Shown here: positions 1,605 through 48,044 of the stretch, piece by piece
Layout of the letters: each line of letters opens with the position of its first letter
Numbering within the stretch: position 1 is the stretch's first letter
Assembly: GCA_963790705.1 (NCBI GenBank)
Contig: CAWBQE010000021.1
Coordinates: 12,806 to 76,805, forward strand
Direction: 5' to 3'
DNA from: an uncultured Acidobacteriaceae bacterium
GTDB taxonomy: Bacteria > Acidobacteriota > Terriglobia > Terriglobales > Acidobacteriaceae
DNA: 64,000 nt
Made by a program: the position numbers and the translations under genes
The notes under the pieces: model-generated
What the model was told of the DNA's origin: nothing
What the model saw: only the letters and a program-made list of their open reading frames with translations
Database searches by the model: none

Positions 1605-4600
1605 TTAGAAAACAATCTTGCCGCTAACTTGCAGTTCTCGATTGGTGTTTGCCTGGGCACCGTCGACCGATCCGAAGGTGTTCGGGCTATTGATATCGGT
1701 GCTGTTGTACTCATTTAGACCGAAGACCGTATGGTTGAAAAGGTTGAAAGCTTCAGCGCGAAATTCGAACTTAGTCTCGCGCCAGAGGGGGAACGATCGA
1801 ATCACCGATGTATCGAAATTGATCAATCGCTGACCTCGGATAAGACCACGGTACGAATTCCCGAAGGTGTACTGTGCGGGAATCGCGAATGCTGCGGTAT
1901 TGAACCACTCGTTTTTCGACCTGGTGAACCCGGAAAAGGGGTTACCTACCATATTCGCGCGTTCGTAGACGTTGGGATTACCGATATTGGCAACGTCCGC
2001 GCTGTCGACCACGGTCTGGTTCTGCCCGCTGCGGGCGTTGAAGATATTGTTGAGCTGCCAGTTGCCCAGGATGTAGTCGCCGAAGCGGTTGCCGGTGGAA
2101 AATCTCCTGCCCTGGCCGACCGGGACATCATAAATAGTGTTGATAGCGAGCGCCTGAGGCACGTTAGTTCCAGCGTAACCTCTGGACGCGCCGGGGTGGT
2201 ACGCATCCTGCACGGTGAGACCTTCCGAGTTGAACCAACCGTCGTCTGCCGTGTAGCTTTCGGCCCAGGTGTAGGCTACCTGGAACGAGAGGCCACTGGT
2301 ATATCGCTTATCCAATGACACCTGAAGGGCGTTGTAGGTGGAACTTCCGACGCCGTGGTCGTAAAGCGTGTGAGTGGCATAGGGATAAGGCGCCCTGGTT
2401 TGCGGGTCCCCGGGACCCGGGGTGAGCGCGGTGTTGTAATAGCCGCCGATGTTGGTGCGGTGCGAGCCAGAGCCGACATAGTCCACTTTCAAAGACAATG
2501 AATTGCTGAGCTGCCGCTGCACGCCGAAGTTCCACTGCTCAGAATAGGCATTCTTATAGTTGGGGTCGAAGAACCAATCGTTGTCGTTATATGGGGTGGC
2601 AGGCGGGAACAGCCCGCCCCCCGGGGTGCCGCCAAAGGGGTTCTGGGAGGTAACGGTCGGCGTCGGCGACGCGGTGGAGGGTACGTTGACTTGCGGGAGG
2701 TCCGGATTACCGATATCAGGCCACGAACCCTCGGCGTTCTGCACCATCTGGGTAACCGCCGCCCAGTTGTCGTAGACGATGCCGAAGGCGCCGTGAACCG
2801 CTGTTTTGTCGTCAACCTTATATGCAAAGCCGACACGCGGCCCGTAGTTGGTATGCACGTTGTGGCTTATCCTGCCGTTGGGACTCACCACAACATGGGG
2901 GGGCAGAGTTCCATTTCCCGGAATGCAGGGAGCGAAGCCGCGGACTGAGCACGGAGGCGGCAACAACTGCACGATGTAGGTGCCGTTGTCCCAATCCCAA
3001 TCGCCGGTTTCAGGCCCGCCATTCTTGCCGATGGTCTTACTGGCCCCGTACCCCGGTATGAACGTGTAGTCGTAGCGCAAACCATAATTCAAGGTCAGTC
3101 TGGGGGTTGCCTTCCAGGAATCCTGCAGGTAGGCGCTTAAGACACCGCCAGGCCTTTCCAGTTCGTCGACGTTGCGGCGTTGTGCGGACTGGGGAACGTT
3201 AAGGAGGAAGGATGCCAAGCCGTTGCCTGTCGCCTGACTGGGAAATTGGGGCGCAGACGTTTGCGGATCGTTAAAGCCGAGTTGGGTGTAGTTGATGGTA
3301 CTGGCAAAACCGGTAGAGACCCACCCCAGCCCGAACTTCACAGTGTGGTTACCGATAATTTGCGTAATGCTGCCTTGGTAGGCGGTGTTGTCCGTAGCGA
3401 AGGGTGTGAGGTTGATTTCCTCGCCGTTTGCGCTGATCCCCTGAATGCCCAACTCTGGAACGAAGTCGCGCCCCGAGGAGAAATTGCCGACGAAAGAGGC
3501 GTCCCAGCCAACGGCACTGATGAGATCGGCCGTGGGAGCTCTAAATTCGTTGACGCCGTTGTCGAGCACTTCGGTGTGCGAGCCTTGGAACTGCGCGATG
3601 CGCGTGGGGCCGAAGACATGGACCCAGCTGCCGCCAAAATTGCGCGAATTGATGATCAGGCTGCTAGGTAACGACGGAAGACCGGCGGACTGAGTGAGCG
3701 TCGAGTCGCTGAAGCTATAGCGGAACCATGCAGAATCTTTGGACCCGAAGGTCTGGTCGAGGCGGACACTGAATTCGTTGAACTTTTGCACCTGGGGAGT
3801 GGTGTCGATCGCGTTCGCCGAGAACGAGCCGTTGCCCGTAGGATTGAAGAAGGGGCCGGCCGTAGGGTAAATAAATTTTGCCCAGGTGACCATTCGCTGA
3901 TCGATACGATCCGCGGGAATCTGATTGTTTGGAAACGCAGTACGAGTGTAACCCGTAGGGGTCGCTACGGTACTGAAAGGATCGTAAATCGGGTTTTGCC
4001 CGTTGTCCGCCTCATCGCCGGCCAGTTCCGCGGCGGTGGGCACCAGGAGGTCGTTATCCGACGCCCTGGAATAGCGCCACCCTTGATAAGCCCCAAAGAA
4101 AAAGGTTTTGTTTCTGCCGTTGTACAGCTTGGGGATGACGACTGGACCGCCGACGGCTCCACCGAATTGGTTCTGATGGAAGAAGGGCTTGGACTGGCTT
4201 GTCGGAAGAAAATAGTTGCGCGCATCGAAGGCCGTGTTGCGCAGGTAATCCCACGCGGCGCCATGCAACTCATTGGTGCCGCTCTTGGTGACCACGTTCA
4301 CGACGCCGCCCAGCACGGAGCCAAATTCCGCGTCGTCCGTGTGAGATACCACCTTGAATTCCTGAATGGCATCAATGATCGGCGCAACCGCATACGTGCT
4401 GTTGATGGCAGCATAGTTGGGGAGGCCATCAGTGAGAAAGTAATCGCTGCGATTGCTCTGCCCGTTGATGGCAGGAAAGGTATAGTCCGAACCGATCGCA
4501 ATGGCGGAGCCGAAGCCGCCGCCAGCGATATTGGTGCCATTTTGGGCGGTCGATATAGCAACGACACCCGGAGTGAGCGCCAGCAGGGCGGTGAAATTTC

Positions 4601-5042
4601 GACCGTTCAGAGGGAGGTCGTTGACCTGCTTGGTCGCAATCACGGTGCCCAAGTTGGCGTTCGTCACGTCCAGCTGGGCGGCCGCCGCCTGAACGTTAAC
4701 CACCTGTGTTTCCGTTCCCACGGTGAGAGCAAAGTCGAATGTGGCGGCCTGGCCCACCGCCAGCAGGAACGGCGCTAACTTTTGCGAGCTGAATCCCTTA
4801 GCAGTGGACTCCAGAGTATAGTTCCCAGGCGCTATGCTGACAAAGCCATACGCACCCGCTTCGTTGGTGGTCGATGTACGCTCGACCGAGGTATCGACAT
4901 TCGTTAACACGATGGAGGCACCGGGGATTACGGCCCCGGCGGGGTCTCGGATCACACCGTTGATCGACGCGGTTGATACTTGAGCGACCGCGGAACCCGC
5001 AAGAAGCAGAAGTAGAAAACTGAGGATGCCCACCATTTGCAT
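1605..5042 (-). CDS. TonB-dependent outer-membrane receptor with an N-terminal carboxypeptidase-regulatory-like domain
   Basis: This is the 1187-aa ORF 1605..5168. The likely start is the internal MQMVGILSFLLLLLAGSAVAQ signal peptide at 5042. It is followed by INGVIRDPAGAVIPGASIVLTNVDT..YTLESTAKGF (CarboxypepD_reg fold), plug-like LNGRNFTALLALTPGV, and the C-terminal ...LQVSGKIVF with a terminal aromatic residue typical of OM beta-barrels. Confidence 0.85.
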   Translation of the reverse strand: MQMVGILSFLLLLLAGSAVAQVSTASINGVIRDPAGAVIPGASIVLTNVDTSVERTSTTNEAGAYGFVSIAPGNYTLESTAKGFSSQKLAPFLLAVGQAATFDFALTVGTETQVVNVQAAAAQLDVTNANLGTVIATKQVNDLPLNGRNFTALLALTPGVVAISTAQNGTNIAGGGFGSAIAIGSDYTFPAINGQSNRSDYFLTDGLPNYAAINSTYAVAPIIDAIQEFKVVSHTDDAEFGSVLGGVVNVVTKSGTNELHGAAWDYLRNTAFDARNYFLPTSQSKPFFHQNQFGGAVGGPVVIPKLYNGRNKTFFFGAYQGWRYSRASDNDLLVPTAAELAGDEADNGQNPIYDPFSTVATPTGYTRTAFPNNQIPADRIDQRMVTWAKFIYPTAGPFFNPTGNGSFSANAIDTTPQVQKFNEFSVRLDQTFGSKDSAWFRYSFSDSTLTQSAGLPSLPSSLIINSRNFGGSWVHVFGPTRIAQFQGSHTEVLDNGVNEFRAPTADLISAVGWDASFVGNFSSGRDFVPELGIQGISANGEEINLTPFATDNTAYQGSITQIIGNHTVKFGLGWVSTGFASTINYTQLGFNDPQTSAPQFPSQATGNGLASFLLNVPQSAQRRNVDELERPGGVLSAYLQDSWKATPRLTLNYGLRYDYTFIPGYGASKTIGKNGGPETGDWDWDNGTYIVQLLPPPCSVRGFAPCIPGNGTLPPHVVVSPNGRISHNVHTNYGPRVGFAYKVDDKTAVHGAFGIVYDNWAAVTQMVQNAEGSWPDIGNPDLPQVNVPSTASPTPTVTSQNPFGGTPGGGLFPPATPYNDNDWFFDPNYKNAYSEQWNFGVQRQLSNSLSLKVDYVGSGSHRTNIGGYYNTALTPGPGDPQTRAPYPYATHTLYDHGVGSSTYNALQVSLDKRYTSGLSFQVAYTWAESYTADDGWFNSEGLTVQDAYHPGASRGYAGTNVPQALAINTIYDVPVGQGRRFSTGNRFGDYILGNWQLNNIFNARSGQNQTVVDSADVANIGNPNVYERANMVGNPFSGFTRSKNEWFNTAAFAIPAQYTFGNSYRGLIRGQRLINFDTSVIRSFPLWRETKFEFRAEAFNLFNHTVFGLNEYNSTDINSPNTFGSVDGAQANTNRELQVSGKIVF

Positions 5043-5233
5043 ACCGGGGAGCAACCTGCTGCTTTGTTTGACGAAACTCTGCGCGCAACGTTCCATATAC
5101 CACCTCTCCAAAAGTGACATTCCTCTTAAAGCGACGTGCCGTGACCTTTTTCGAATCTGGCCCAGCAACCCCGTAAATCTGTAACGTTCCTTGTGGTTCT
5201 TCGTGGTTCTTCAAATCCTGGATGAGAGCTTAC

Positions 5234-6256
5234 TTACGGATAAGCCTTTCCAGGGTATGGACGTGGAGTGATGTCGGCATCCACTAACCCCAAAGCCCAA
5301 CGAATCCCGCCGGTGTAAATCTCTTGTAGGTGGGGATCGTCAAGACTGGTGTCGATATGCCCGAAGGTCGAGTACCACACGCGGCCTTTGCCGTATTTTT
5401 TCGCCCAGACGATCGGGTAGTCGCCATCGGTACGAACTCCGATCAATTTGGCGACCCGGGCACGATATGCCTCGTCAGACATTTTGCTTCCCTCTTTTTC
5501 CGCGTTCAGCGAAGCCAGCTTCTCAGCGAACTTGCTTGAATCCAGGCGGAGGATCACGCGATCGATATCCCGCGAAAAGTTCGGCCCCAGGATGGTGTAT
5601 TGATCGCGGAAGGAAAATTCGCGAGGAACATTCTTCAGCCCTGGAAAGGCCGGATCCTCGACCACGATAGGCAGCGTAATCGATGGGAACTCGGCGACCA
5701 GATCGCCGCCGACCATTTCCGCATACTCCCGCCACACGATGCAGCCCCCGCCGTTCGACGCGTGACCGCCGATAAAACCTTTGCCGTCGTCGTGCACAAA
5801 CGAGAGCAGATCGTCCTTTTGCTCGTCGGTGATCTCCCAGGAGCCGCCGCCCATAAAGAAGACGGCGTCAAAGTCATCAAGGGTCCGGGCATTGCGACCG
5901 TAATTGATATCTTTGGTGAGCAGCTTGAAATCGGTTCGGATCACCGTGATCCAGTCGCCGGACTCACGGCCAAGCCGTTCGATCGTAGCCAGGGTATGGC
6001 TACTCGCATCGTGATGATAGGAGTTACGCTGGCGGTTATACCACACGTCAGCGTCAGCAATGGCAAGGAGCTTTTTCTTGCCCGGCCAGGTATCTTCGAC
6101 AAATCGCGGGCGCGCAGGGTCCGGTGTAGGTGGGTGCGTACGTTCTGGCGGAGGCGGAGTCGTTGCGTTTGTCGCCTGCACGCCCGTCAGGGCGTCCGCG
6201 GCCCGCGGAGTGAACGACGTGACGGCTAATCCTTTGAGAAGTTCACGCCGGTCCAT
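5234..6256 (-). CDS. ThuA (trehalose-utilisation) domain protein, exported (Tat-like RRELLK signal)
   Basis: N-terminus MDRRELLKGLAV. The ThuA-like body reads FDAVFFMGGG..GFIGGHASNGGG..WREYAEMVGG..VWYSTFGHIDTSLDDPHLQEIYTGGIRWALG. GAAGGAG lies upstream of the ATG. Confidence 0.8.
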   Translation of the reverse strand: MDRRELLKGLAVTSFTPRAADALTGVQATNATTPPPPERTHPPTPDPARPRFVEDTWPGKKKLLAIADADVWYNRQRNSYHHDASSHTLATIERLGRESGDWITVIRTDFKLLTKDINYGRNARTLDDFDAVFFMGGGSWEITDEQKDDLLSFVHDDGKGFIGGHASNGGGCIVWREYAEMVGGDLVAEFPSITLPIVVEDPAFPGLKNVPREFSFRDQYTILGPNFSRDIDRVILRLDSSKFAEKLASLNAEKEGSKMSDEAYRARVAKLIGVRTDGDYPIVWAKKYGKGRVWYSTFGHIDTSLDDPHLQEIYTGGIRWALGLVDADITPRPYPGKAYP

Positions 6257-6388
6257 GGTTCAAATACTCCTTCTGCTCGGAATAAGATCTTCGTCACTAT
6301 TCCCAGCTCTTCTGTGCAAGCTTGATTCCCGGCCCTAACCTTTTTTCCATCGCGCAAAATCACACTACAAATCACAATACGGCGCCGG

Positions 6389-7201
6389 TTACATTAATGT
6401 TCCCGCCGCCCACGCCGTGCCCCTGCGAATCAGCTCCCCCACCTGTGGTACCTGCAGAGCCTTCACATCGTGCCCCAAAGGAGTGTTGAAAACCCGGCCC
6501 TTCTTGTAGTGAACCGTCAAAGCCATCGGGAAGTCAGCGTCTTTTACGTTCGAGTGGGCAGTGGCCAGGATTTGAACCGGGATGGAGCCGTCTTTGTTGT
6601 CGTAGTACAGTTCATCGTCGGTCTGAAAGTCGGCCATTCCCTTGGTGATGGGACTGTCGTGGTCGACGATTTTGACGGTGAAGGGCCCACGCTTGTCGTG
6701 GTGGAGCTGCTGCGAACGGCCCACGATGTTGTTATATTCCGGCCAATACGGAAAGGCGTCGTTAGCCCAATGAGTCGTGACCAGACCCTTGCCTTTGCCC
6801 AGGAACTTTAGAAGGTTAGCTTTGTCTTTTTCATCCTGTGCCAGCGGTTCAGCGTTTCTGAAATCAAAAATCAGCACATCGTATTTAAAAATCTCAGGGG
6901 TTGCGAGAAAATTGGGATCGGCTTCGATCGTGACTTCGAAATCAAAGTCCGGTTTACCGGCCTCCAGAATCGTTTTCAATTCTGCGGATGTATCTTTCCA
7001 CAGATGACCGGGATGAGTATCTTCACCGGTGACAATCGCGACGCGCGTGGTTCGCTTGGTGTGCTGCGCATGGCCGGAATGGCCGAAGGCAAGCGCAACG
7101 ACCGCGCCGGCGATGAGAAGCATTCTCACAGCTGCGTTCACGCCGGCTCCAGCTTTCTGCGTTGCTCGGCTTGGTGATGCTTGCTGGCTACCAAATGTCA
7201 C
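6389..7201 (-). CDS. ThuA domain protein, exported (second paralog)
   Basis: Signal-like MLLIAGAVVALAFGHSGHAQ, then YDVLIFDFRN..GKGLVTTHWAND..VFNTPLGHDVKALQVPQVGELIRRGTAWAAG. The GTG start at 7201 has AAGGTGA upstream. An internal ATG at 7123 is an alternative start. Confidence 0.8.
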   Translation of the reverse strand: MTFGSQQASPSRATQKAGAGVNAAVRMLLIAGAVVALAFGHSGHAQHTKRTTRVAIVTGEDTHPGHLWKDTSAELKTILEAGKPDFDFEVTIEADPNFLATPEIFKYDVLIFDFRNAEPLAQDEKDKANLLKFLGKGKGLVTTHWANDAFPYWPEYNNIVGRSQQLHHDKRGPFTVKIVDHDSPITKGMADFQTDDELYYDNKDGSIPVQILATAHSNVKDADFPMALTVHYKKGRVFNTPLGHDVKALQVPQVGELIRRGTAWAAGTLM

Positions 7202-7228: not shown

Positions 7229-8917
7229 TTAGTTCAGAACAAACGCATACACCATGTCACCCGCGCCCACGAGGATGTACTGGTGCCCGTCGAGCATGTA
7301 GGTCTCTGCTGCGCTGGTGGGATGGATTTTTGCGTACCACAGTGGTTTGCCGTTCAGGGGATCACGCGCGACCAGGTCCCCATTCGGATCAGTGGCGAAG
7401 AGCAACTTGCCCGCCGTCGTCAGCAGACCAGGAAAGTCGCCTCGAACATCAATACCGCCAACGCCGGCATAGCGGTGACTCCAGACGATCTTGCCCGTCT
7501 TGTAGTCGACGGCAACCAACCGGTTGCCACGTGAGCCCATATCGGCGCCGGGAACGCCGGTAAGGCCCATGGCTCCCTTTGGATCGAGTGTGCCGAGGTA
7601 ACGCATGCTATAAGTCTCAGCGACATGAGCATAGAAGAGCTTGGTCACCGGATCATAGCTTTGTGGGGTCCAGTTGGTGACGCCGAGGCCATTTGGAGAA
7701 ACAATCGCTCCGCCGATATCGTAGTCTTTCGCTGGATTGCGGACAGGTTCGCCGCGCTTGTCGATGCCCATATCCCAGTTCACAGTGTCGGTGATTTTGC
7801 TGGTGACGAGGTGTTCGCCGTTTACCCGATCGAGGGTGAAGAAAAAGCCATTGCGAGCCAGCGTAGCTACCAACTTACGGGGCTTGCCGTTGAACTCTCC
7901 GTCGAACAGCACAGGAGTCTGTGCCGAGTCGTAGTCATGCGTGTCGTGCGGAGAGGTCTGGAACCACCATGCCAGCTTTCCTGTGTCCACATTGACTGCG
8001 AGCAGAGAACAGGTGTAGAGATTGTCACCGGGACCGCGGGTTTGCGATGTGTAAGCGGGCGAGGGGTTGCCGGTTCCGAAGATATAGAGGTGGGTCTCTG
8101 GATCATAGGAACCCGGAGCCCAGACATTGCCCCCGCCGTGAGCCGCGGCATCGATGTTGGCCCAGGTTTCTGCGCCGGGGTCGCCCTTTTTCATGGGAAC
8201 GGTATAGAACCGCCACTGCAGATCACCGGTGTCAGGATCGTAAGACTCCAGCATGCCGGGCTCGTCCATGTCGTCCCCGGTGCCGACCAGAAGATGATTG
8301 CCGACCACAATGGGCGACATCGACGAGAAGTATTGCAGGTCAAAGCTGGCGATCTCTTTGCGCCACCGCTCGTTGCCCGTCTTGGCATCAAGACACAGAA
8401 GGTAGTTGTCGGGGGTTTCAAGATAGACCCAGTTGTGCCACATGCCCACGCCACGGTTGCCCGTGTGCGTACCACCCTTGGTTTTCCAGTAGTAGTGCCA
8501 GATCTCATGGCCATCCCGCGCATCCAGTGCCCACGCATTGTCGGGTGAGGCTACATAGAGGATGCCCCCTACCTGCAGGATGGAGCCCTTCACGGTTACC
8601 GGGTAGCGTGCATCCACACCCTGCTCTGTTCCGCCAACAATCACTGGAGGCGTGCCGGCCGGGCCCTCCGGTCCGACAACCACGTGGGTCGCCCAGGCGA
8701 GCGAAAGATTCTTCACATTGCTTTGGTTCAGTTGCGTAAGGGGGCTGTAGCGGCGGCCGGAGTAATCACCGGAATAAGTCAGCCACGCATCCTGAGGAGG
8801 ATTGAAGATCTGCTGGGGATCAAGACCCTTGGCTGGGTCGAACCACTGGGCCATCGCTAGCCTGGGCGCGACCAGCATGCCAAGAATAAAAATGAGATTC
8901 CTGATTCCTGTGATCAT
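7229..8917 (-). CDS. PQQ-dependent-dehydrogenase-like eight-bladed beta-propeller (quinoprotein), copy 1
   Basis: Signal MITGIRNLIFILGMLVAPRLAMAQ. Motifs are WLTYSGDYSGRRYSPL, GNRGVGMW, YDPETHLYIFGTGNPSP, WWFQTSPHDTHDYDSAQTPVLFD, LARNGFFFTLDR and a C-terminal YMLDGHQYILVGAGDMVYAFVLN. The start overlaps the upstream cytochrome c stop (ATGA at 8914-8917). Confidence 0.85.
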   Translation of the reverse strand: MITGIRNLIFILGMLVAPRLAMAQWFDPAKGLDPQQIFNPPQDAWLTYSGDYSGRRYSPLTQLNQSNVKNLSLAWATHVVVGPEGPAGTPPVIVGGTEQGVDARYPVTVKGSILQVGGILYVASPDNAWALDARDGHEIWHYYWKTKGGTHTGNRGVGMWHNWVYLETPDNYLLCLDAKTGNERWRKEIASFDLQYFSSMSPIVVGNHLLVGTGDDMDEPGMLESYDPDTGDLQWRFYTVPMKKGDPGAETWANIDAAAHGGGNVWAPGSYDPETHLYIFGTGNPSPAYTSQTRGPGDNLYTCSLLAVNVDTGKLAWWFQTSPHDTHDYDSAQTPVLFDGEFNGKPRKLVATLARNGFFFTLDRVNGEHLVTSKITDTVNWDMGIDKRGEPVRNPAKDYDIGGAIVSPNGLGVTNWTPQSYDPVTKLFYAHVAETYSMRYLGTLDPKGAMGLTGVPGADMGSRGNRLVAVDYKTGKIVWSHRYAGVGGIDVRGDFPGLLTTAGKLLFATDPNGDLVARDPLNGKPLWYAKIHPTSAAETYMLDGHQYILVGAGDMVYAFVLN

Positions 8918-9834
8918 TTCACGGTCACCAGATATGCGGTCACGTCGTGAACATCTTTGTCGGCGATCTTCTGCACCAGCTCGCGATGGGGCGCAAGCGG
9001 ATCATGAATTTCAACTTTGGGTATGTCGCCGTCACGTCGGAACCCTTGCGGGCCGTCCGTTTCATTCGTAAGACCCACGTAAAAGTCGCTGATGCTGACA
9101 AGATTGCCTTCGATCTTCTTGCCGTTGGGTAACGTCACGGTCACAGTGATAGGAGGAAGATGCAGTCCAAGAGCCTTCGCGGAGTATCTGCCAGAGCCGC
9201 CTCCCTCGCCCCCGGGTAGCAACCAGGTCTGTTGCAGGGTTTTGGGCTCTGTAATGCGCGAGCCTATCCCGGCCAGGTCCCCGGTGGCCGAATGGCAGGA
9301 GGCACAGGACTTTTGAAAATAGGCCGCGCCGGCCTCGGCGTTCCCGGTGAGAATGCTGATCTCAGCCGAGTTGTACATAACCGTCTTGCCAGTGGCATTA
9401 AAGTGGTGTAGCCATGCTGCTACCTCTTTTATTTGCTCGTCGGTGATGTCGACTCGAGGCATGCCCTGCTGGGCTCGCCCACCATGAACGATCGGCGCTA
9501 TCAGTTCGCCGTTTTGATCCTGAAGAACCACCGCCGACCGCAACAAATTCGGTCCCACCTCGCCGCCTCTGGCATCGGAGCCATGGCAGAAAGAACAACT
9601 CACACCGTAGGTCGTCTTACCCCCATCGATTACTTCCTGGGGATATTTCGGCCGGTCCGGAAAATCCAGCGTCTGTCCTTTGATCGCAATGGTTCCTGGA
9701 TCCTTGCGGCCGTTTTGATTCTGAGCCTTCACCTGAAACTGCACCAGGAACAGCGAGCCCAAAAGAGCTGCCAGGCCGATCGCTCCGGCTGGTTTTTTCC
9801 CACGCTTCAACTTAAAGCAGGCTCGGGGTCTCAT
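8914..9834 (-). CDS. Dihaem c-type cytochrome with a conserved non-haem C-terminal domain, copy 1
   Basis: Signal peptide, then two CxxCH motifs (CSFCH, CASCH). The C-terminal ITVTVTLPNGKKIEG...DKDVHDVTAYLVTVK is shared with the two other copies. Confidence 0.85.
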   Translation of the reverse strand: MRPRACFKLKRGKKPAGAIGLAALLGSLFLVQFQVKAQNQNGRKDPGTIAIKGQTLDFPDRPKYPQEVIDGGKTTYGVSCSFCHGSDARGGEVGPNLLRSAVVLQDQNGELIAPIVHGGRAQQGMPRVDITDEQIKEVAAWLHHFNATGKTVMYNSAEISILTGNAEAGAAYFQKSCASCHSATGDLAGIGSRITEPKTLQQTWLLPGGEGGGSGRYSAKALGLHLPPITVTVTLPNGKKIEGNLVSISDFYVGLTNETDGPQGFRRDGDIPKVEIHDPLAPHRELVQKIADKDVHDVTAYLVTVK

Positions 9835-9839
9835 CGGTT

Positions 9840-10898
9840 CTACTCACCCTTTCCCTGCTCGTCGGTAAATGGGTCCTTTTTCATTCCCCGCCATTCGACT
9901 GACAGCTTTTGCAGCAGGTCGGTGGGCGTGACTCCATCGTGAACGACAACCCGGTAACGGAGGATCAAAGGTTTACTCGGATGGATGGTCAGCGGGCCGA
10001 ACGAGGTGATACAGGGATTTATCATCCAGAGCACGTTGTGCCAGCGGGTGGGTGGATTCATAGGATGGTCCAGAACGGCCACTCCAACCAGCTTTCCGTC
10101 GCTCTTCAGTTTGATGGAGTAGTCATACCAGGGCTCAGAGGGCCAATCCGAATTAGGCAACGAGTAATGCGGGCCTGGAAGGTCCACCTTGCCGGAGGCA
10201 TTGGAGTAGTAGGAATCCCCATACTTCTGAGCCTGGAATGCGAAGCCGCCAAAGGCTGTCTGGTCGATCACGAAATCCACGACTGGAGCGATGCGGTAGG
10301 TGATGTCGATAACGTAGACGCCATCGCGCTCAGCGACGGCGACATTGTCGGTCTCTTCGACCATCTTCTGGTCATCGACAAACCAGTCATTGTCGATTTC
10401 CAGCTCAGCGTGCTTGTCGTCGGCGTCGAGCACACGTATATCGCGGTTCCTGATACTGCGGCCATCGCGAGGAGCATAAAGGCCCCAGGCCCAGAAGTCG
10501 GCCCGCTTTACGTTGAAGGCGCCTTCGAGGTGGTTGGGAGGAAGCTTGGAAGTATCGACCGGAGTGCGGAATTCAGAATCCAAAATGCCCAGAAAAATAC
10601 CGCGATGCCACGGATGATCGTCGGGTGCGGCATTTGAGACCCTCTCTCCAGAAGGAGTATTTACCGGGTCAAAGTATGCCGCGCTAGGCGACTGAAGATT
10701 GGCTGGAATCTTTGTCTTGTATTCAAAGACGATCTGACCCTGCGGCGTTTTCAGCTGCATACCTTCGCTGGTAGGCGTGAGCGTGTAAGACGCCGAGGCT
10801 GCGCGGGCGTGCATGGTGCAGACAAGCGTGCTCAGGACGAACGTTGAACGGGCTGCTGTCGCAAGAGCTTCGCTCAAATTCCTCGGATACGATGCCAC
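9840..10898 (-). CDS. PmoA-family / DUF6807-like protein, exported
   Basis: AYFDPVNTPSGERVSNAAPDDHPWHRGIFLG...ADFWAWG matches my memory of the DUF6807 core (YxHPxxTPxGxxxT..DHxxHxGxxF..DFW). The GTG start at 10898 is preceded by GGGGAGA. Confidence 0.65.
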   Translation of the reverse strand: MASYPRNLSEALATAARSTFVLSTLVCTMHARAASASYTLTPTSEGMQLKTPQGQIVFEYKTKIPANLQSPSAAYFDPVNTPSGERVSNAAPDDHPWHRGIFLGILDSEFRTPVDTSKLPPNHLEGAFNVKRADFWAWGLYAPRDGRSIRNRDIRVLDADDKHAELEIDNDWFVDDQKMVEETDNVAVAERDGVYVIDITYRIAPVVDFVIDQTAFGGFAFQAQKYGDSYYSNASGKVDLPGPHYSLPNSDWPSEPWYDYSIKLKSDGKLVGVAVLDHPMNPPTRWHNVLWMINPCITSFGPLTIHPSKPLILRYRVVVHDGVTPTDLLQKLSVEWRGMKKDPFTDEQGKGE

Positions 10899-11345: not shown

Positions 11346-12359
11346 TTATGCCTGACACCCGCAGGACTGTCGAACGATCAAGCTCGTGGGTAAAACGACA
11401 GCGCGGGAGTGCCCTCCACGGCCCCGGAGGCGTTCGAACAGCAATTTTGCGGCTTCGCGTCCCAGCATCTCGGCAGGCTGTTGAACAACCGATAGACCGG
11501 GGGTTAACATGTCCGCGAGTTCAAAATCGTCGAAGGAGAACATTGGTATATCGCAGCCCGCCTTTTTCCCGAGTTGCCGCAAAGCGCGCAAAGTGAGCAT
11601 GGTGCAAACCCAATTCAAGCTAAAAATCGCGTCCGCCTTCTGAACGCCAAAGACTTCCTTTGCGAGCCATTCGGCAACTAACGCACTCTCGTGCTCCACA
11701 AGACACACTCTCGGCTCAAGGGACGCTCCTTTCATCCCAGCGCGGTAGCCGGCTGCCCGTTCTCTGCAGGTATAAAGGTACGGGCGTGCGCCAATGGCGA
11801 CAATCCTGCGCAAGCCATGACCCACCATGTGCTCGGTTGCCTCTCGTGCGCTGCTACGATTGGTCACGGTCACGGAATCGAGGTCGGCATTTCGCAGCAA
11901 CTGGTCGAAGGTCACGGCATGAACGCCCGCGGGGATGATGTCGCTGAAAGAATCGGTTCGACTATCAATTGGAGCGATAATCAAACCATCTATTTGCCGG
12001 CCGACTAAGCCTTCGATTTCAGATCGTTCCAGACCAACTTCCCCACCCGAACTAGCAAGAATCACCACATAACCATTGGTCCGTGCAACTTCCTGAACAG
12101 CGTGCACCGCATTGGCGAAGAATGGGTCAGAAAGATTAGGCACAATCATTCCGATAGCTGCGGATCTCTTTGCCTTGAGTCCTCGAGCCAGCTCGTTCGG
12201 CCGATAGCCGAGCCGTTCCATGACGGTCCGGATTTTTGCGGCCTTTTCCTGGCTGACGTTTTTGGATCGATTCAGAACTCGGGATGCTGTTTTGAGCGAG
12301 ACGCCGGCTTCTCGAGCGACGTCCACCAATGTGGGAACTTGCGTTCTTTTTACAGCCAT
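11346..12359 (-). CDS. LacI family transcriptional regulator
   Basis: N-terminal HTH PTLVDVAREAGVSLKTASRVLNRSKNVSQEKAAKIRTVMERLGYRPNELARGLK, followed by a periplasmic-binding-protein-like sugar domain. Confidence 0.9.
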   Translation of the reverse strand: MAVKRTQVPTLVDVAREAGVSLKTASRVLNRSKNVSQEKAAKIRTVMERLGYRPNELARGLKAKRSAAIGMIVPNLSDPFFANAVHAVQEVARTNGYVVILASSGGEVGLERSEIEGLVGRQIDGLIIAPIDSRTDSFSDIIPAGVHAVTFDQLLRNADLDSVTVTNRSSAREATEHMVGHGLRRIVAIGARPYLYTCRERAAGYRAGMKGASLEPRVCLVEHESALVAEWLAKEVFGVQKADAIFSLNWVCTMLTLRALRQLGKKAGCDIPMFSFDDFELADMLTPGLSVVQQPAEMLGREAAKLLFERLRGRGGHSRAVVLPTSLIVRQSCGCQA

Positions 12360-12384
12360 TTCTCAGCCAATCCGGTCAATAAGC

Positions 12385-13695
12385 TTAGTGAAGCCAATTC
12401 CCACCTGCTCTTTCTGGTGCGGCGACAGAGCCAAGGGCTGTTCCCCGGGTTTCCGGATACCAAAGCAACACAACGCCGATCTGCAGGACCATGGCCAAGG
12501 AGAAAAAGAAAAAGGCGCGAACAGGTGAGGCATGTTGCATGATCGGAAAGATCGAAACCAGAATAGCATTCGCAATCCAATTCACCGACGAACCATATCC
12601 CTGGCCTGCGCCACGCGTTCCCGGCGAAAACAACTCGCTGAGATATACCCAGACAACCGTTCCTTGAGAAAACGCAAAGAACACATTGTAGGCAACGAGA
12701 ATTGACAAATAGAATAGCGGACCGAGGTGATGTGGGATCGCAAGGCCCAGGCAAAGCAGGCAGACAGCCATTCCGGCAGAGCCCCAAAGCAGAAGAGGCT
12801 TCCGTCCCAACTTATCTACAAACGCCATTCCGAGCACAGTCGTAGCCAGACTGATAAAGGAAATCAGAACTGTGTAAGTGTGCCCTAACAAGACGCCAAG
12901 ACCAGCGCTGGACAGGATATCCAACAGGTACAACAACAAGATGTTCACGCCAGAGAGTTGATTGAAAATCGCGATGCTCGTCGCCAGCAGAATGGGACGT
13001 GTGTTCTTGCGGCAAAATAGTTTTTCACTGCTGAAAGCTCTATCGAGGTCGGACGAGTTCATGTCCTGGCTGTCGCCAGGGCTGATTCTGGAGTTCCCCT
13101 GGGAAATAAACTGCAGCAGGAAAACTAAAATTACTGCGGGGATGACTCCTAATCCCAGGCACCATCTCCATTCGGTTCCTGTTGCTGCCGAATGTGTCAC
13201 TACTAATCCGAGGGAGAACGCTACCAGTACACCTGCGCCCACCTGAACCTGGAACAGGCTGACCAGGCGACCGCGAAGAGCGATTGGAGCTATTTCAGAA
13301 AGATAAAGCGGACAGGCGACGGTAAAGCCCCCAATAGACATGCCGGCCAGGAATCTCATGACCGGAACAAGAATCCACGCCGGCGAAATTGGCAGTGCGA
13401 TCCCGACAGCCGCAAGCGCGTACAGGACTGAACATCTCGCAATCAAATCTCGCCGGCCGACGCGGTCTGCTATCCGCCCCGAGAGAAGAGATCCGCAGAC
13501 AGTTCCCCACAAAGAAGACGACACGGTCAAACCGAAGACCATAGGGGAAAGGTGTAATTGACCTCTGAGGCTTTGGGTTGAAGCAGAAAGCGCTCCAAGA
13601 TCGTACCCGAAAACGAATCCCCCGAACGAGCCAACTAATGCGGCCCTAACCAGGCGCTTGTTCAACTGATATATATCAATCCCAGCTCGTCGCAA
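12385..13695 (-). CDS. Sugar porter family MFS transporter
   Basis: 12-TM pattern with GGFVFGYDLG, GRIADRVGRRDLI and the PETRG motif. The apparent start is TTG. Confidence 0.85.
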   Translation of the reverse strand: MRRAGIDIYQLNKRLVRAALVGSFGGFVFGYDLGALSASTQSLRGQLHLSPMVFGLTVSSSLWGTVCGSLLSGRIADRVGRRDLIARCSVLYALAAVGIALPISPAWILVPVMRFLAGMSIGGFTVACPLYLSEIAPIALRGRLVSLFQVQVGAGVLVAFSLGLVVTHSAATGTEWRWCLGLGVIPAVILVFLLQFISQGNSRISPGDSQDMNSSDLDRAFSSEKLFCRKNTRPILLATSIAIFNQLSGVNILLLYLLDILSSAGLGVLLGHTYTVLISFISLATTVLGMAFVDKLGRKPLLLWGSAGMAVCLLCLGLAIPHHLGPLFYLSILVAYNVFFAFSQGTVVWVYLSELFSPGTRGAGQGYGSSVNWIANAILVSIFPIMQHASPVRAFFFFSLAMVLQIGVVLLWYPETRGTALGSVAAPERAGGNWLH

Positions 13696-13778
13696 CTTCG
13701 AACAAAAGCCAGCGATTGCTCCTCGGACATTCTAGCTGGGAACCAGGAAGCAGATTCAGCTAGGGAATGAGAGCCGCC

Positions 13779-14708
13779 TCAGCCAATGAGCGTATCCAAC
13801 TCCGCAAAGCTCGCAGTACCCTCCATGGGACCTTTGCGCGTCACGGCAATCGCACCACTGGCGCAGGCATAGCGCAGCGAGTGGTCGACCGATTTGCCTT
13901 CTTCGCGGCATGCCGCGTAGGTGGCGCAGAAGCAGTCGCCGGCGCCAGTGGGGTCGACCTCGCGGACCGCGAACGCCGGTACGTCCAGTCGGCACGACCG
14001 GTCGTAATAGGTGCAGCCCGCGCTGCCGTGCTTCACGACGATCTCTCGAATTCCGAGGGCGAGTAGCTGCTCGATGGCCTCGGCCTCCGTTTGCGCATCC
14101 ACGAGCAGGGCCACCTCGTCGCCGCTCGGCAGGAACACGTCGGTCTGTTCGAGGACTGATCGCAACGCTTCCCGAATGCCCGCGCTTCTGAGTATCTCCG
14201 GCCGGATGTTCGGGTCGAAGGAGATTACCCCACCTCGGCGCTTCACCATGCCGATCGCCTTACGGACGGCTGCGGTGATTCCCGGAGAGAACAGTGATGA
14301 ACCCATGACGTGAAACCACGTGCAATCGGCGACCACCGACTCGGTGATCGCCGACGCTGAGAGGCGGCCGGAAGCGCTATTGGCAATGTTGAAGATGAAG
14401 TGGCGCTCGCCCGTCTCCGCGTAGGTGACAAACGCGCTTCCGGTGACCGCGTCGGCGAGCAAGGCGACGGCACTCGTGTCGACACCGTCCCGGCGCAGGC
14501 GGTCGATGTTCAGCCACCCGAAATCATCGTCGCCTACGCAGCCGATAATCCCGGCCGGACGTCCGAGACGGCCCACCTGGTCGATGAAGATGGCGGGAGC
14601 GCCGCTCGCGAAAGGTCCCACCAGGGTGCCCGGCGAGCGGAAGCTCTGGCCGCGCTCGGTCGCCATGATCTCTACCAGGATCTCCCCGATTGTCATGATC
14701 CGGGCCAT
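13779..14708 (-). CDS. PfkB-family carbohydrate kinase
   Basis: MARIMTIGEILVEI.., GGAPA-like N-terminal motif and the C-terminal DPTGAGDCFCATYAA signature. The ATG at 14708 has AAAGGAG 7 nt upstream. The ORF-track start at 14756 is probably too long. Confidence 0.85.
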   Translation of the reverse strand: MARIMTIGEILVEIMATERGQSFRSPGTLVGPFASGAPAIFIDQVGRLGRPAGIIGCVGDDDFGWLNIDRLRRDGVDTSAVALLADAVTGSAFVTYAETGERHFIFNIANSASGRLSASAITESVVADCTWFHVMGSSLFSPGITAAVRKAIGMVKRRGGVISFDPNIRPEILRSAGIREALRSVLEQTDVFLPSGDEVALLVDAQTEAEAIEQLLALGIREIVVKHGSAGCTYYDRSCRLDVPAFAVREVDPTGAGDCFCATYAACREEGKSVDHSLRYACASGAIAVTRKGPMEGTASFAELDTLIG

Positions 14709-14880
14709 GCGCAGGCTCCTTTCAGGGGCGACCCTTGGTCTGCACGTCGATCGCAAGCGCGCACAGAATAACGCATTTCCGAGTTGTAGAGTTACTCGAG
14801 GCCGGAAAGCGGACGGTTGACTGAATCACAAAGTATTTGCTTGCAGCGTTGGTAAGGTGGGTATATTTGAAGGACACATT

Positions 14881-15780
14881 ATGCATCGCCGAAGATTTTT
14901 GCAGACTGCTGCCGCTTTGACTGTTATGTCTACTGTTCGTGCCCGCGCTAATACTCGTTTACCAATCGCGATGGCGGTTGAGTACAACATGCTGCCCCCA
15001 AAGATGTCCATCATGGAGCGGTTTGAGCTTGCCAAGGATTGCGGGTTCGAACGGATAGAGTGCCCCACCACCCGCGATCAGGGGGATGCGGAGAAAATCA
15101 AGGCCGCCTCAGAGAAAACCCGGCTGCCAATCCATTCCGTCATGAATATGGACCACTGGGAATATCCGTTTTCCTCGGCCGACCCGGCGGTGGTGGAACG
15201 GAGCCTGGACGGTGCGCGCGTCTCCATTCGAAACGCGCATTTGTGGGGAGCTACGACGGTGCTTCTGGTGCCAGCCGTGGTGAATGCCCAGACGACGTAC
15301 AAAGAAGCCTATGAGCGGTCTCAACCGGTCATCCGCAAACTGATTCCTTTGGCGGAGGAATTGAATGTAACCCTGGCTCTGGAGGAAGTGTGGAATAAGT
15401 TTCTGCTAAGCCCGCTGGAGTTTGCCCGCTATATCGACGAGTACAATTCGCCGCGCGTGAAGGCTTATTTTGATGTGGGAAATGTAGTGCTGTACGGCTA
15501 CCCGCAGGATTGGATTCGGACGCTGGGCAAGCGGATCGCCAAGCTACACATCAAGGACTTTTACTTCAGGCACGATAAGGGCACCGACAAATCAGTGGCT
15601 GCCTGGGTGCCCTTGGGTGAGGGTGACATCGACTGGACAGCCGTATATGAGGCGCTTCACGACATCGGTTATCAAGGTACAGCGACCCTGGAGCTGGACC
15701 CGGGAGATGCAGCCTATCTGAAAGAGATGCACCGGCGATTTGGACTGATACTCACGGGGGAAATGCCTAAGAAGGCTTGA
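14881..15780 (+). CDS. Xylose-isomerase-like TIM-barrel protein (annotated class 'sugar phosphate isomerase/epimerase') with a twin-arginine signal
   Basis: MHRRRFLQTAAALTVMSTVRARA is a Tat signal. The AP_endonuc_2-type body reads FERIECP..LALEEVWNKFL..YFDVGNVVLYGYPQDWIRTLGKRIAKLHIKD. AAGGA lies upstream of the ATG at 14881. Confidence 0.8.
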   Translation: MHRRRFLQTAAALTVMSTVRARANTRLPIAMAVEYNMLPPKMSIMERFELAKDCGFERIECPTTRDQGDAEKIKAASEKTRLPIHSVMNMDHWEYPFSSADPAVVERSLDGARVSIRNAHLWGATTVLLVPAVVNAQTTYKEAYERSQPVIRKLIPLAEELNVTLALEEVWNKFLLSPLEFARYIDEYNSPRVKAYFDVGNVVLYGYPQDWIRTLGKRIAKLHIKDFYFRHDKGTDKSVAAWVPLGEGDIDWTAVYEALHDIGYQGTATLELDPGDAAYLKEMHRRFGLILTGEMPKKA

Positions 15781-17839: not shown

Positions 17840-17853
17840 TGTCACAAGTGACA
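17840..17853. promoter_or_regulatory. Perfect palindrome TGTCAC-AA-GTGACA in the divergent sulfatase intergenic region; candidate regulator site
   Basis: tgtcacaagtgaca. Its right half plus flank (aagtgacagtt) recurs exactly at 17625-17635. Confidence 0.25.
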
Positions 17854-25238: not shown

Positions 25239-25595
25239 ATGAACTATAGTCTCTTCATGCGATTCACACGTATCTGTGTCCTGCTGCTGGCCGGCGTCGC
25301 ACCCTTGTCCGGCTTCGGACAAGAGCCGGTTTCGCAGTTACCCGATGGGCCGAACCGCGAAACCGTGCAACGCATCTGCTCGGGGTGTCATTCGGTCCAG
25401 ATGTTTACGGGGCGGGGGATGACGCGGGAACAATGGGGCGGCGTTGTCTCCAACATGATCGGCCGGGGAGCAAAGATCTCGGACGAAGAGTTCGACGAAG
25501 TCGTCAACTATCTTGGCAAAGCTTTGCCGCCTGCCCAGCAAGGCGGTGAGGCGCCGCGGTTGCAAAGGCCGCCCCAGTGCATAAGAAAAGCCTGA
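25239..25595 (+). CDS. Small monohaem c-type cytochrome with a signal peptide. It may be the N-terminal domain of the next ORF.
   Basis: MNYSLFMRFTRICVLLLAGVAPLSGFG is a signal peptide, followed by CSGCHS. The ORF overlaps the next ORF by 19 nt in another frame. Confidence 0.6.
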   Translation: MNYSLFMRFTRICVLLLAGVAPLSGFGQEPVSQLPDGPNRETVQRICSGCHSVQMFTGRGMTREQWGGVVSNMIGRGAKISDEEFDEVVNYLGKALPPAQQGGEAPRLQRPPQCIRKA

Positions 25596-26338
25596 TTGAC
25601 CAGGTAGGCGCAGATGACAAGCAGATCGTCGACGAAGATGCCGCGGCACGGGGTAGGACCGTGTATATCGCGCAATGCATCACCTGCCATGGAACACGGG
25701 CGCGGGGAGGCGAGCGCGGCGCCGACCTGGTGCGATCGTTAGTGGTTCTTCATGACCGCTACGGAAGCACCATCGGTCCTTATCTTGCGCAGGGGCACCC
25801 GGCGGGAAAACCAGTCGCGTTGACGCAGGAGCAGATTGTGGATTTGTCCCATTTCCTGCACCAGCAGGTGGGTGACACTTTGCGAACCGGACCTTACAAC
25901 AACGTGCTGAACATCCTGGTGGGCGATCCCAACGAAGGAAAGGCCTTCTTCTATGGAGCAGGAGGGTGCAGCCATTGTCACTCACCGACGGGTGACCTGG
26001 CGCACATCGCCAGCAAATACGATCCGCCCGGTTTGCAGTTGAAGGTGGTGTTTCCGCAGAACCGTGCAGTCGCGCGCGAGGGAAGTGAGAGCCCGCGCAA
26101 GCCACTGACGGTTACGGTGACCACGGCGTCCGGCGAAAGCGTGACCGGGGTGCCGACGGAGCTTGACGATTTCAACGTTTCGCTCCACGACGCCTCCGGC
26201 CGATATCACAGCTTCGCACGCGGACCCGGGGTCAAAGTGGAGAAGCACGATCCTTATGCCGCGCACGTGGCGCTACTCGACAAATACACCGACAAAGAAA
26301 TACACGATGTAGTGGCCTACCTGGAGACCTTGAAATGA
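25577..26338 (+). CDS. Dihaem c-type cytochrome, copy 2. It has no signal peptide of its own.
   Basis: CITCH and CSHCH, with the C-terminal LTVTVTTASGESVTG...DKEIHDVVAYLETLK. The frame is closed by a TGA at 25547-25549, so no upstream signal peptide is possible in this frame. Confidence 0.75.
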   Translation: MHKKSLIDQVGADDKQIVDEDAAARGRTVYIAQCITCHGTRARGGERGADLVRSLVVLHDRYGSTIGPYLAQGHPAGKPVALTQEQIVDLSHFLHQQVGDTLRTGPYNNVLNILVGDPNEGKAFFYGAGGCSHCHSPTGDLAHIASKYDPPGLQLKVVFPQNRAVAREGSESPRKPLTVTVTTASGESVTGVPTELDDFNVSLHDASGRYHSFARGPGVKVEKHDPYAAHVALLDKYTDKEIHDVVAYLETLK

Positions 26339-29248: not shown

Positions 29249-29269
29249 CAGAGTTTTTCCGCAGCCTCT

Positions 29270-46339: not shown

Positions 46340-46501
46340 CGCCAGTGTTTGACGTGATCGCTGCGTTGTCGGGAACAAATGGCGAGAAAGCGGTCAAGGC
46401 GAACCTCCAGTCCCGCAGGGGTCTGCCTCCGTCCTGACGGGGTTCTCACAGTTCAGAGAGATTTTTCGTAGACTGTAAAATTTTGGACTGGAGTTCATTT
46501 C

Positions 46502-48041: not shown

Positions 48042-48044
48042 CTT

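Follow-up and report, generated by a model that had tools for sequence, protein, structure and literature searches.

Three acidobacterial quinoproteins lacking the vicinal disulfide belong to family TIGR04528 and are probably cytochrome c-coupled PQQ-type dehydrogenases

Results

Three quinoprotein genes and their cytochrome c partners

The 64,000-nucleotide stretch of DNA analysed here (the window), from an uncultured Acidobacteriaceae bacterium, carries three quinoprotein genes, A, B and C, each an intact ORF lying exactly where a sequence-only reading of the same DNA had placed it (Table 1). The encoded proteins, 48-56% identical in pairwise comparison, are old paralogues of one family. Because the Pfam PQQ domain matches have E-values of 1e-70 to 1e-78 and the match to PedH in a PDB sequence search has an E-value of 1.6e-80, the motif likeness to known enzymes reflects homology and not chance. 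The D-x-D motif lies within SPHDTHDYD (A, residue 322), SPHDTHDWD (B, residue 302) and SPHDMHDYD (C, residue 327). Several motif claims of the sequence-only reading were reproduced: GTGNP occurs in A, B and C, no translation contains a CC dipeptide, and the segments equivalent to the Cys-Cys of related enzymes read KGGTHTGNRG (A), KGGIHLGNRG (B) and KGGTHIGNRG (C). The RNG Arg, which had been placed about 27 residues past the first Asp of D-x-D, lies exactly 27 residues past it in all three. The surrounding motif is also present, although its proposed spelling, A(R/S)RNG(F/W/Y)FF, has to be corrected to [AS]-R-N-G-[FWY]-F-F (LARNG, ASRNG and AARNG in A, B and C). Each protein contains 2-3 Cys, at positions that differ between the paralogues. 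Proteins identical to A or B were not found in the protein collections searched; the genome closest to the window is a MAG from an uncultured member of the Acidobacteriaceae, with 96% amino acid identity.

Judged from the gene overlaps (Table 1), each quinoprotein is translationally coupled to its own predicted periplasmic multihaem cytochrome c, and in 78 of the 80 best related loci the gene immediately upstream, in the same orientation, encodes a homologous cytochrome c. In the window, the cytochrome c genes paired with B and C are frameshifted, which counts against the reading that we prefer below. The B cytochrome is split by a 1-nt deletion near 25548 into a frame with the signal peptide and first haem domain (CSGCH) and another with a di-haem part (CITCH, CSHCH), and is a single tri-haem ORF in the 96%-identical MAG; the C cytochrome lies in two frames owing to an apparent +1 nt near 44790. 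The first haem domain of the adjacent cytochrome weakly resembles MoxG (E 2.5e-7) and PedF (E 1.2e-6), with scores that fall well short of the cut-offs.

Table 1 Features of the window, with key residues of the three quinoproteins.
Feature	Position	Strand	Remarks
Quinoprotein A	7229..8917	-	562 aa; Sec signal peptide; TIGR04528 700 bits; H151, R155, D215-D216-M-D218, W266, N284, H324-D325, H327-D328-Y-D330, R355
Quinoprotein B	26335..27939	+	534 aa; Sec signal peptide; TIGR04528 824 bits; H132, R136, D197-D198-L-D200, W247, N265, H304-D305, H307-D308-W-D310 (D-x-D codons at 27256-27264), R335, N394-W395
Quinoprotein C	42825..44516	-	563 aa; Sec signal peptide; TIGR04528 748 bits; H156, R160, N220-D221-I-D223, W271, N289, H329-D330, H332-D333-Y-D335, R360
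Di-haem cytochrome c of A (CSFCH, CASCH)	8914..9834	-	Signal peptide; stop overlaps A start (ATGA)
Cytochrome c of B	25239..26338	+	Signal peptide; stop overlaps B start (ATGA)
Di-haem cytochrome c of C (CQGCH, CAGCH)	44513..45374	-	Stop overlaps C start (ATGA)
DUF6807 protein	9840..10898	-	Signal peptide; upstream of A cytochrome c, same operon; position kept in related loci L001 and L082
Two ThuA-family genes	5234..7201	-	Downstream of A
ThuA-family gene	6389-7201	-	Signal peptide or anchor
ThuA-family gene	5234-6256	-	Twin-arginine signal
TonB-dependent-type outer-membrane receptor	1605..5168	-	CarboxypepD_reg + OMP_b-brl_4; end of A operon
Regulator and uptake genes	11346..15780		Flank A operon
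LacI regulator	11346-12359	-	Flanks A operon
MFS sugar transporter	12385-13695	-	Flanks A operon
PfkB sugar kinase	13779-14756	-	Flanks A operon
Sugar-epimerase-like TIM barrel	14857-15780	+	Tat-exported; flanks A operon
LacY / nucleoside:H+ symporter-like MFS transporter	41515..42771	+	Adjoins C; same pairing in related locus L083
Xylose-isomerase-like TIM barrel, MlrC-like protein, IolE-like TIM barrel	45485..48830	+	Divergent from C operon

Family membership

Over profile positions 1-493 of 493, A, B and C scored 700.4, 823.6 and 747.5 bits against TIGR04528 (acido-empty-quinoprotein group A), above the NCBIfam curated cut-off of 650 bits for the whole-protein HMM score. Against TIGR03075, the methanol/ethanol PQQ family, they scored 352, 429 and 360 bits (cut-off 480), and against TIGR03074, the membrane glucose/quinate dehydrogenases, 163-185 bits (cut-off 833). 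As they pass TIGR04528 and fail TIGR03075, the three proteins therefore belong by sequence to a known, curated family of acidobacterial PQQ-type dehydrogenases. Close homologues bear the same NCBI name, the nearest of them being proteins from Acidobacteriaceae, Bryobacteraceae and Vicinamibacterales, and the best 80 related loci are nearly all from Acidobacteriota. The family is large, with more than 7,500 homologues returned per search and 2,054 clusters at 50% identity (E<1e-30).

The word 'empty' in the family name, which we take to refer to host genomes without PQQ biosynthesis genes, fits the sequence-only reading, which mentions acidobacterial PQQ-dehydrogenase-like families from genomes that lack pqq genes. 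None of pqqB, pqqC, pqqD and pqqE was detected among the ORFs scanned within the 64-kb window. The curators' choice of word signals doubt over the presence of PQQ, and we count it against our preferred reading.

Predicted fold and active site

An AF2 model built on a diverse alignment of 95 sequences (pLDDT 91.9, pTM 0.91), which replaced an earlier model from 40 close homologues (pLDDT 73.8, dropping below 50 in the D-x-D loop), is predicted to form an eight-bladed PQQ propeller with the same overall fold as PedH. Foldseek gave TM-scores of 0.85-0.87 for this model against PedH (0.86), XoxF (0.85) and quinohaemoprotein ADHs. In the alignment of B with PedH, D198 corresponds to E199, W247 to W263, N265 to N281, D308 to D323, D310 to D325 and R335 to R350, and these B residues are invariant in 40 of 40 family members. 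The assignment of D-x-D to the metal site was supported, with the HD(Y/W)D of A, B and C aligning with W-D323-F-D325 of PedH, where D323 is the catalytic Asp and D325 the lanthanide Asp; at the +2 position the Ca enzymes ExaA and ADH-IIG carry Ser and Thr.

The metal-binding Glu (PedH E199) is replaced by an Asp that is invariant in the family (A D216, B D198, C D221), an exchange that the sequence-only reading had overlooked. The Cys-Cys loop is shorter, with KGG.H.GNRG aligning to PCCDVINRG, and the PQQ contacts of methanol dehydrogenase are altered: Lys or Ala stands in for Glu55, the residue at the Trp476 position is variable and the C-terminal segment is short. That these contacts are not all kept, and that the metal Glu is an Asp, again counts against our preferred reading. 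In PDB searches with Cys-Cys-less representatives, PedH came first every time, ahead of the sugar-type PQQ enzymes 4CVB, 7WMD and 4MH1, and in a distance tree the window proteins fall in a clade apart from PedH, ExaA and ADH-IIG. More distant members of this clade (P0122, P0124, P0125 and P0148) have lost the metal Asp as well. The proposed divergent clade without Cys-Cys appears functional, with a putative active site invariant in 40/40 members and the cytochrome c gene upstream in 78/80 loci.

Aligned with E. coli glucose dehydrogenase (Gcd) by MAFFT L-INS-i, B has H132 opposite H262, D197-D198 opposite D354-N355 and D308/D310 opposite D466/D468. The His in the Cys-Cys loop of the window family is invariant and matches that of Gcd. 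The roles of the Gcd His and Asp-Asn residues are reportedly those described by Cozier and Anthony in 1995 and by James and Anthony in 2003. The putative active site is, on these alignments, a hybrid, combining an alcohol-dehydrogenase-like Asn, Arg and cytochrome c partner with a glucose-dehydrogenase-like His and acidic dipeptide, and the apparent loss of Cys-Cys and Glu is a feature in common with glucose dehydrogenase rather than decay. A, B and C have only a cleavable-looking Sec signal peptide and no N-terminal multi-helix anchor of the Gcd type.

The D-x-D motif and the metal

The suggestion that D-x-D is a special lanthanide signature of this clade did not hold. The motif is present in 70 of 78 diverse relatives and also in E. 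coli Gcd (HHDLWDMD), for which activity with Ca, Mg, Zn or Sr has been reported (PMC11996626); by itself it is therefore no indicator of rare-earth dependence. Lanthanide use by A, B and C is possible, because D-x-D is compatible with a lanthanide, and Ca or Mg may equally be the metal.

Strictly lanthanide-dependent PQQ alcohol dehydrogenases resembling XoxF, ExaF and PedH, with Ln3+ on the extra Asp, would account for the invariant Asp at +2 aligning with PedH D325 and for PedH as the top match in the PDB by both sequence and structure. Surveys also predict lanthanide use for most D-x-D PQQ-dehydrogenase clades, many of them acidobacterial (PMC11996626; bioRxiv 10.64898/2026.07.10.737718). 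We consider such strict dependence rather unlikely, given the distribution of D-x-D and the metals reported for Gcd, the Asp in place of the lanthanide-binding Glu, the failed TIGR03075 cut-off, the lack of any hit to XoxJ, XoxG or lanmodulin in Pfam scans of the window, and neighbours that are carbohydrate-related and not methanol- or ethanol-related.

PQQ or another cofactor

The NRG Arg, the stacking Trp, the GNP Asn, the catalytic Asp, the +27 Arg and the Asn-Trp pair are PQQ or metal contacts in solved enzymes. All are invariant in 40/40 family members, which argues against truly 'empty' homologues, that is, propellers without PQQ that hold a different cofactor or act as scaffolds or binding proteins with no catalytic role. 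The pairing with a cytochrome c gene at almost every locus speaks in the same direction, as it implies that electrons are produced, and the paralogues share no Cys from which a protein-derived quinone could be made. Scavenging of PQQ by organisms unable to make it is, moreover, well documented (PMC12124388). We therefore regard 'empty' homologues as improbable, even though several points are in their favour: the curators' family name, the pqq-free window, the distant clade members without the metal Asp, and the loss or alteration of the Cys-Cys ring, of the metal Glu and of the residues equivalent to Glu55 and Trp476. We would give only slim odds to a speculative variant in which a remodelled pocket (His cap, Asp-Asp, Lys for Glu55) binds a redox cofactor other than PQQ, or else a bare lanthanide or some other metal centre, in pqq-less genomes and still feeds the cytochrome c.

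Gene neighbourhood

The A operon also encodes a DUF6807 protein, two ThuA-family proteins and a TonB-type receptor, and further carbohydrate-related genes flank or adjoin the A and C loci (Table 1). This carbohydrate context is seen in the window and conserved in L082, where a TonB-type receptor likewise adjoins the A orthologue, and in L083; locus B has little sugar context, which counts against our preferred reading. The quinoproteins carry Sec signals, and the neighbouring ThuA, TIM-barrel and DUF6807 proteins carry Tat or Sec signals. Taken together, the nearby ThuA, DUF6807 and TIM-barrel proteins, sugar transporters and TonB-type receptors suggest periplasmic carbohydrate oxidation, and it is only the gene neighbourhood that points to a substrate of carbohydrate type.

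The JGI name given to homologues, 'alcohol dehydrogenase (cytochrome c)', and the ethanol dehydrogenases that are the top PDB matches would fit ordinary short-chain (methanol or ethanol) alcohol dehydrogenases. We consider this very improbable in view of scores below the cut-off of the methanol/ethanol model TIGR03075, the separate position in the distance tree, operon partners of the ThuA, DUF6807, sugar-epimerase-like TIM-barrel, sugar MFS and TonB-type receptor kinds, and the lack of aldehyde dehydrogenase or formaldehyde pathway genes nearby.

Two further candidates were rejected. The neighbouring TonB-type receptors, considered as PqqU-like PQQ importers, have a CarboxypepD_reg/OMP_b-brl_4 architecture and not the classic plug-barrel one, and the XoxF3-type methanol systems of Acidobacteria adjoin cox genes, XoxG, XoxJ and NRAMP, none of which is present here.

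Discussion

With a probability of roughly 60%, we favour the reading that A, B and C are Sec-exported PQQ-type propeller dehydrogenases that oxidise carbohydrate and are coupled to cytochrome c, with a lanthanide, Ca or Mg as the metal. The apo-protein would be exported to the periplasm and there acquire PQQ, which could be scavenged or come from biosynthesis genes elsewhere in the genome. For exogenous PQQ the outer membrane is the only barrier to the periplasm, and scavenging would be feasible because no other membrane has to be crossed. The GNP Asn, the Asp-Asp pair in place of the usual Glu, and D-x-D would bind the metal ion, the first Asp of D-x-D acting as the catalytic base. Oxidation of an imported substrate of carbohydrate type, be it a sugar, a glycoside or a polyol, would yield electrons that the adjacent cytochrome c would relay to the respiratory chain.

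Acidobacteria rank among the bacteria most abundant in soil. If periplasmic sugar oxidation with scavenged PQQ, and possibly lanthanides, is correct, it would be a widespread route by which electrons from carbohydrates enter respiration, and would make these bacteria reliant on the cofactors of their neighbours. The family has thousands of members, yet a literature search that included the full-text term 'acido-empty-quinoprotein' found no paper naming it and no experiment on any member, and a search on the types of PQQ-ADH, on PQQ enzymes without the vicinal disulfide, on pqq genes in Acidobacteria and on His262 of Gcd found nothing specific. D-x-D should not be taken as proof of rare-earth dependence.

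Comparison with known systems

The window proteins are no different from other members of TIGR04528. With PedH, ExaF and XoxF (PDB 6ZCW, 6DAM, 4MAE) they share the predicted eight-bladed propeller, the catalytic Asp with a second Asp at +2, the GNP Asn, the stacking Trp, the Arg 27 residues downstream, the periplasmic location and a cytochrome c as likely electron acceptor. They differ in having the shorter KGG.H.GNRG loop instead of a vicinal Cys-Cys, Asp-Asp or Asn-Asp instead of the metal Glu, His instead of Trp before the catalytic Asp, a cytochrome with two or three haems instead of mono-haem cL, XoxG or PedF, a carbohydrate-related context and TIGR03075 scores below the cut-off. Type II quinohaemoprotein ADHs (PDB 1KV9, 1YIQ, 1KB0) rank near the top of the structural matches (TM 0.87) and likewise pass electrons from a PQQ domain to cytochrome c; theirs, however, is a fused C-terminal domain whereas that of the window proteins is encoded by a separate upstream gene, and they possess both the Cys-Cys ring and the metal Glu and, as Ca types, carry Thr or Ser at +2. 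Unlike the window proteins, which are predicted to be soluble and paired with cytochrome c, E. coli Gcd is anchored in the membrane by five helices and uses ubiquinone as electron acceptor, and it has Lys493 and Thr424 where they have the alcohol-dehydrogenase-type Arg and GNP Asn. Both lack the Cys-Cys ring, and both have a His equally far ahead of the Arg of (N/C)RG, the D-x-D motif, an acidic or amide dipeptide where a metal Glu is usual and a sugar-type substrate (a probable one for the window proteins), and Gcd works with scavenged PQQ.

Three old paralogues of a catalogued family

ORFs for the quinoprotein paralogues A, B and C were found at exactly the positions proposed for them by the sequence-only reading, and all three carry Sec signal peptides. 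The motifs SPHDTHDYD, SPHDTHDWD and SPHDMHDYD in the three copies, together with GTGNP, KGG(T/I)H(T/L/I)GNRG and the missing CC dipeptide, were verified by script; each protein has two or three cysteines, at no common position. Counting from the first Asp of D-x-D (the catalytic Asp and the Asp two residues on), the Arg of RNG(F/W/Y)FF comes exactly 27 residues later in all three copies. The adjoining motif, previously spelled A(R/S)RNG, is present but reads LARNG, ASRNG and AARNG. Pairwise identities of 48% (A–B), 56% (A–C) and 49% (B–C), together with separate orthologues of each in other Acidobacteria (65–96% identity), mark them as old paralogues, not recent duplicates.

All three match the PQQ propeller domain (Pfam, E 1e-70 to 1e-78) and pass the curated cut-off of 650 for the NCBIfam model TIGR04528, "acido-empty-quinoprotein group A", with 700, 824 and 748 bits, respectively. 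They score 352–429 against the methanol/ethanol PQQ family TIGR03075, under its cut-off of 480, and far under that of the membrane glucose/quinate family TIGR03074. In Edaphobacter, Granulicella and Bryobacteraceae, close homologues bear the same group A name at NCBI; the JGI label for close homologues is "alcohol dehydrogenase (cytochrome c)". Each word-indexed search gave more than 7,500 significant homologues, and an exhaustive comparison with 50%-identity representatives yielded 2,054 clusters at E<1e-30. At 96% amino acid identity, an uncultured Acidobacteriaceae MAG is the closest genome, and nearly all of the best 80 loci belong to Acidobacteriota; with the TIGR04528 match, this bears out what the sequence-only reading said of an acidobacterial quinoprotein-like family. 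A literature search by family name found no paper naming TIGR04528, and "PQQ" was absent from the acidobacterial genomics papers found by genus search. A, B and C are new members of an already catalogued, uncharacterised family, which as a whole merits biochemical study.

Cytochrome partners and cofactor

Each quinoprotein gene is preceded by a cytochrome c gene whose TGA stop shares bases with the quinoprotein's ATG (ATGA). These cytochromes contain two CxxCH motifs; in the related MAG, the B-type partner has three. Their first haem domain is weakly similar to MoxG, which accepts electrons from methanol dehydrogenase, and to PedF, which does so for PedE/PedH. Of 80 related loci, spread over many acidobacterial orders, 78 have a homologous cytochrome gene immediately upstream in the same orientation, with a gap of 0–123 nt in 77 of the 78; the remaining two loci are cut by a contig end. 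Since a cofactor-free protein would have no reason to keep such a partner, its retention argues for a redox cofactor and offers gene-order evidence that A, B and C are working redox enzymes.

No pqq genes were found among the ORFs scanned in the 64-kb window. Even in a genome with no PQQ synthesis, apo-quinoproteins in the periplasm could take up PQQ from outside, which need cross no more than the outer membrane, as happens in E. coli. Scavenging of PQQ is widespread and includes acidobacterial genomes without pqq genes (PMC12124388). Given both, PQQ, made or scavenged, is a likelier cofactor than a different one.

Two of the cytochrome genes are interrupted. Upstream of B, one G is missing near 25548 (GGTG-AGG) relative to the 96%-identical MAG (GGTGGAGG), so that the di-haem part lies in another frame than the signal peptide and first haem domain; this could be a sequencing error or real inactivation. 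Upstream of C, two overlapping frames meet at a frameshift near 44790, where one apparent extra base occurs in ...AAAGCGCTTGCAAAAC..., judged against cytochrome A. A TonB-type receptor gene is spread over four successive ORFs, as a pseudogene or through several indel errors; with the two cytochrome frameshifts, broken genes are unusually dense for a 64-kb stretch.

Gene neighbourhoods

A lies in an operon ordered LacI, DUF6807, cytochrome c, A, ThuA, ThuA and TonB-type receptor, beside an MFS sugar transporter, a PfkB kinase and a Tat-exported sugar-epimerase-like TIM barrel. At an orthologous locus with 82% identity (L082), genes again follow one another as DUF6807–cytochrome–quinoprotein–ThuA–receptor–TIM barrel. 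C has a LacY/nucleoside-symporter-like MFS gene and TIM-barrel genes at its sides, and the cytochrome–quinoprotein–MFS arrangement recurs, with a receptor gene alongside, in another related locus (L083). Locus B has little carbohydrate-type context. Taken by themselves, the neighbourhoods suggest that sugars, glycosides or polyols are imported and oxidised in the periplasm. Methanol or ethanol as substrate is disfavoured by the sugar-type surroundings of A and C.

Judging by their Tat signals, one protein each of the ThuA and sugar-epimerase-like TIM-barrel families, usually held to be cytoplasmic, is evidently exported here. The related MAG lacks the sulfatase block between loci A and B, its A and B standing almost side by side, and it keeps the order of the Planctomycete-type genes (L001). 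The tandem duplication just downstream of B is rich in internal inverted repeats and contains the three Rfam Acido-Lenti-1 sRNA matches; the ORFs listed in it are probably spurious.

Features of the window
Feature	Position	Strand	Remark
ThuA-family protein	5234-6256		Tat signal
Quinoprotein A	7229..8917	-	562 aa ORF
Sugar-epimerase-like TIM-barrel protein	14857-15780		Tat signal
Sulfatase block	15906-21559		two sulfatases, formylglycine-generating enzyme (FGE-sulfatase)
Cytochrome c upstream of B	25239-26338		frameshift
Quinoprotein B	26335..27939	+	534 aa ORF
Tandem duplication	28159-29249		~533-nt unit, copies 96-100% identical
Rfam Acido-Lenti-1 sRNA matches	28512-28557, 28578-28623, 29133-29178		41-54 bits vs gathering score 37
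Three Planctomycete-type genes	29270-35528	-	PSCyt1+DUF2231; DUF1501; PSCyt1+PSCyt2+PSD1 (1050 aa)
Quinoprotein C	42825..44516	-	563 aa ORF
Cytochrome c upstream of C	44513-45374		frameshift
CarboxypepD_reg/OMP_b-brl_4 TonB-type receptor	49405-52791		ORFs 49405-50529, 50661-51227, 51275-51922, 51919-52791
217-aa ORF	62092-62745		covers only first 119/301 positions of sulfatase profile

Metal site

Among PDB entries, B matches the lanthanide enzyme PedH best (6ZCV/6ZCW, E 1.6e-80). Counting along the B–PedH alignment, which reproduced PedH's own numbering, pairs D198, W247, N265, D308, D310 and R335 of B with PedH E199, W263, N281, D323, D325 and R350, respectively, and none of these mapped positions varies among the 40 family members compared. 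In a multiple alignment with labelled references, HD(T/M)HD(Y/W)D of A, B and C occupies the position of HDGWDFD in PedH (Ln), NDAWDFS in ExaA (Ca) and GDAWDYT in ADH-IIG (Ca). Whether D-x-D falls on the metal site had been posed as a check, and by sequence alignment it does. A first AF2 model reached only pLDDT 73.8; a second, using a diverse 95-sequence alignment as input, was confident (pLDDT 91.9, pTM 0.91, D-x-D block 96) and superposed on PedH, quinohaemoprotein ADHs and XoxF with TM 0.85–0.87. The residue mapping rests on the alignments, not on model coordinates.

D-x-D is reportedly necessary in known lanthanide enzymes. Both Asp residues are found in 70 of 78 diverse representatives (33–54% identical to B), so that having it is the norm in the whole superfamily sector around A, B and C, in agreement with published surveys (PMC11996626; bioRxiv 10.64898/2026.07.10.737718). 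It also occurs in E. coli glucose dehydrogenase, Gcd (b0124; HHDLWDMD, D466/D468, aligned to B D308/D310), which accepts Ca, Mg, Zn or Sr as its metal and whose lanthanide dependence ("facultatively") is the authors' prediction only (PMC11996626). Because relatives and Gcd share it, D-x-D is not sufficient evidence of lanthanide dependence. The proposal of a functional, divergent Cys-Cys-less clade holds, and lanthanide use by A, B and C is possible, but the weight placed on the motif was overstated.

A hybrid pocket

Overlooked in the sequence-only reading were a Glu-to-Asp change and a glucose-dehydrogenase-like character. The metal-binding Glu is Asp in A, B and C, inside G(D/N)D(L/M/I)D, whereas it is kept in all solved alcohol/methanol dehydrogenases (PedH GGEFG, ExaA GDEFG, ADH-IIG GAEFG). 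Cys-Cys loss and this change travel together: representatives with Cys-Cys have Glu, Asp or another residue there in 26, 7 and 2 cases, and those without it in 11, 23 and 9. A rough neighbour-joining tree places A, B, C and a few representatives in their own Cys-Cys-less clade, apart from that of PedH, ExaA and ADH-IIG. Outliers of the Cys-Cys-less clade (P0122, P0124, P0125 and P0148) have Ser, Gly or Leu for the metal-site Asp, with Gln for the GNP Asn in one of them, and part of the wider clade may lack metal binding.

Some contacts of methanol dehydrogenase are altered in A, B and C: Lys or Ala takes the place of Glu55, the residue matching Trp476 is variable, and the C-terminus is short. 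Gcd has the same state for both oddities, Cys-Cys being absent and Glu replaced. Its H262, which is said to stand in for the disulfide ring above PQQ, corresponds in the alignment to the His of KGG.H.GNRG, invariant in the family, at identical spacing to the Arg, and its D354-N355, reportedly proposed as metal ligands with T424, align with B D197-D198. The pocket is thus a hybrid, with a cap and acidic pair like those of glucose dehydrogenase, yet a GNP Asn and an Arg like those of alcohol dehydrogenases.
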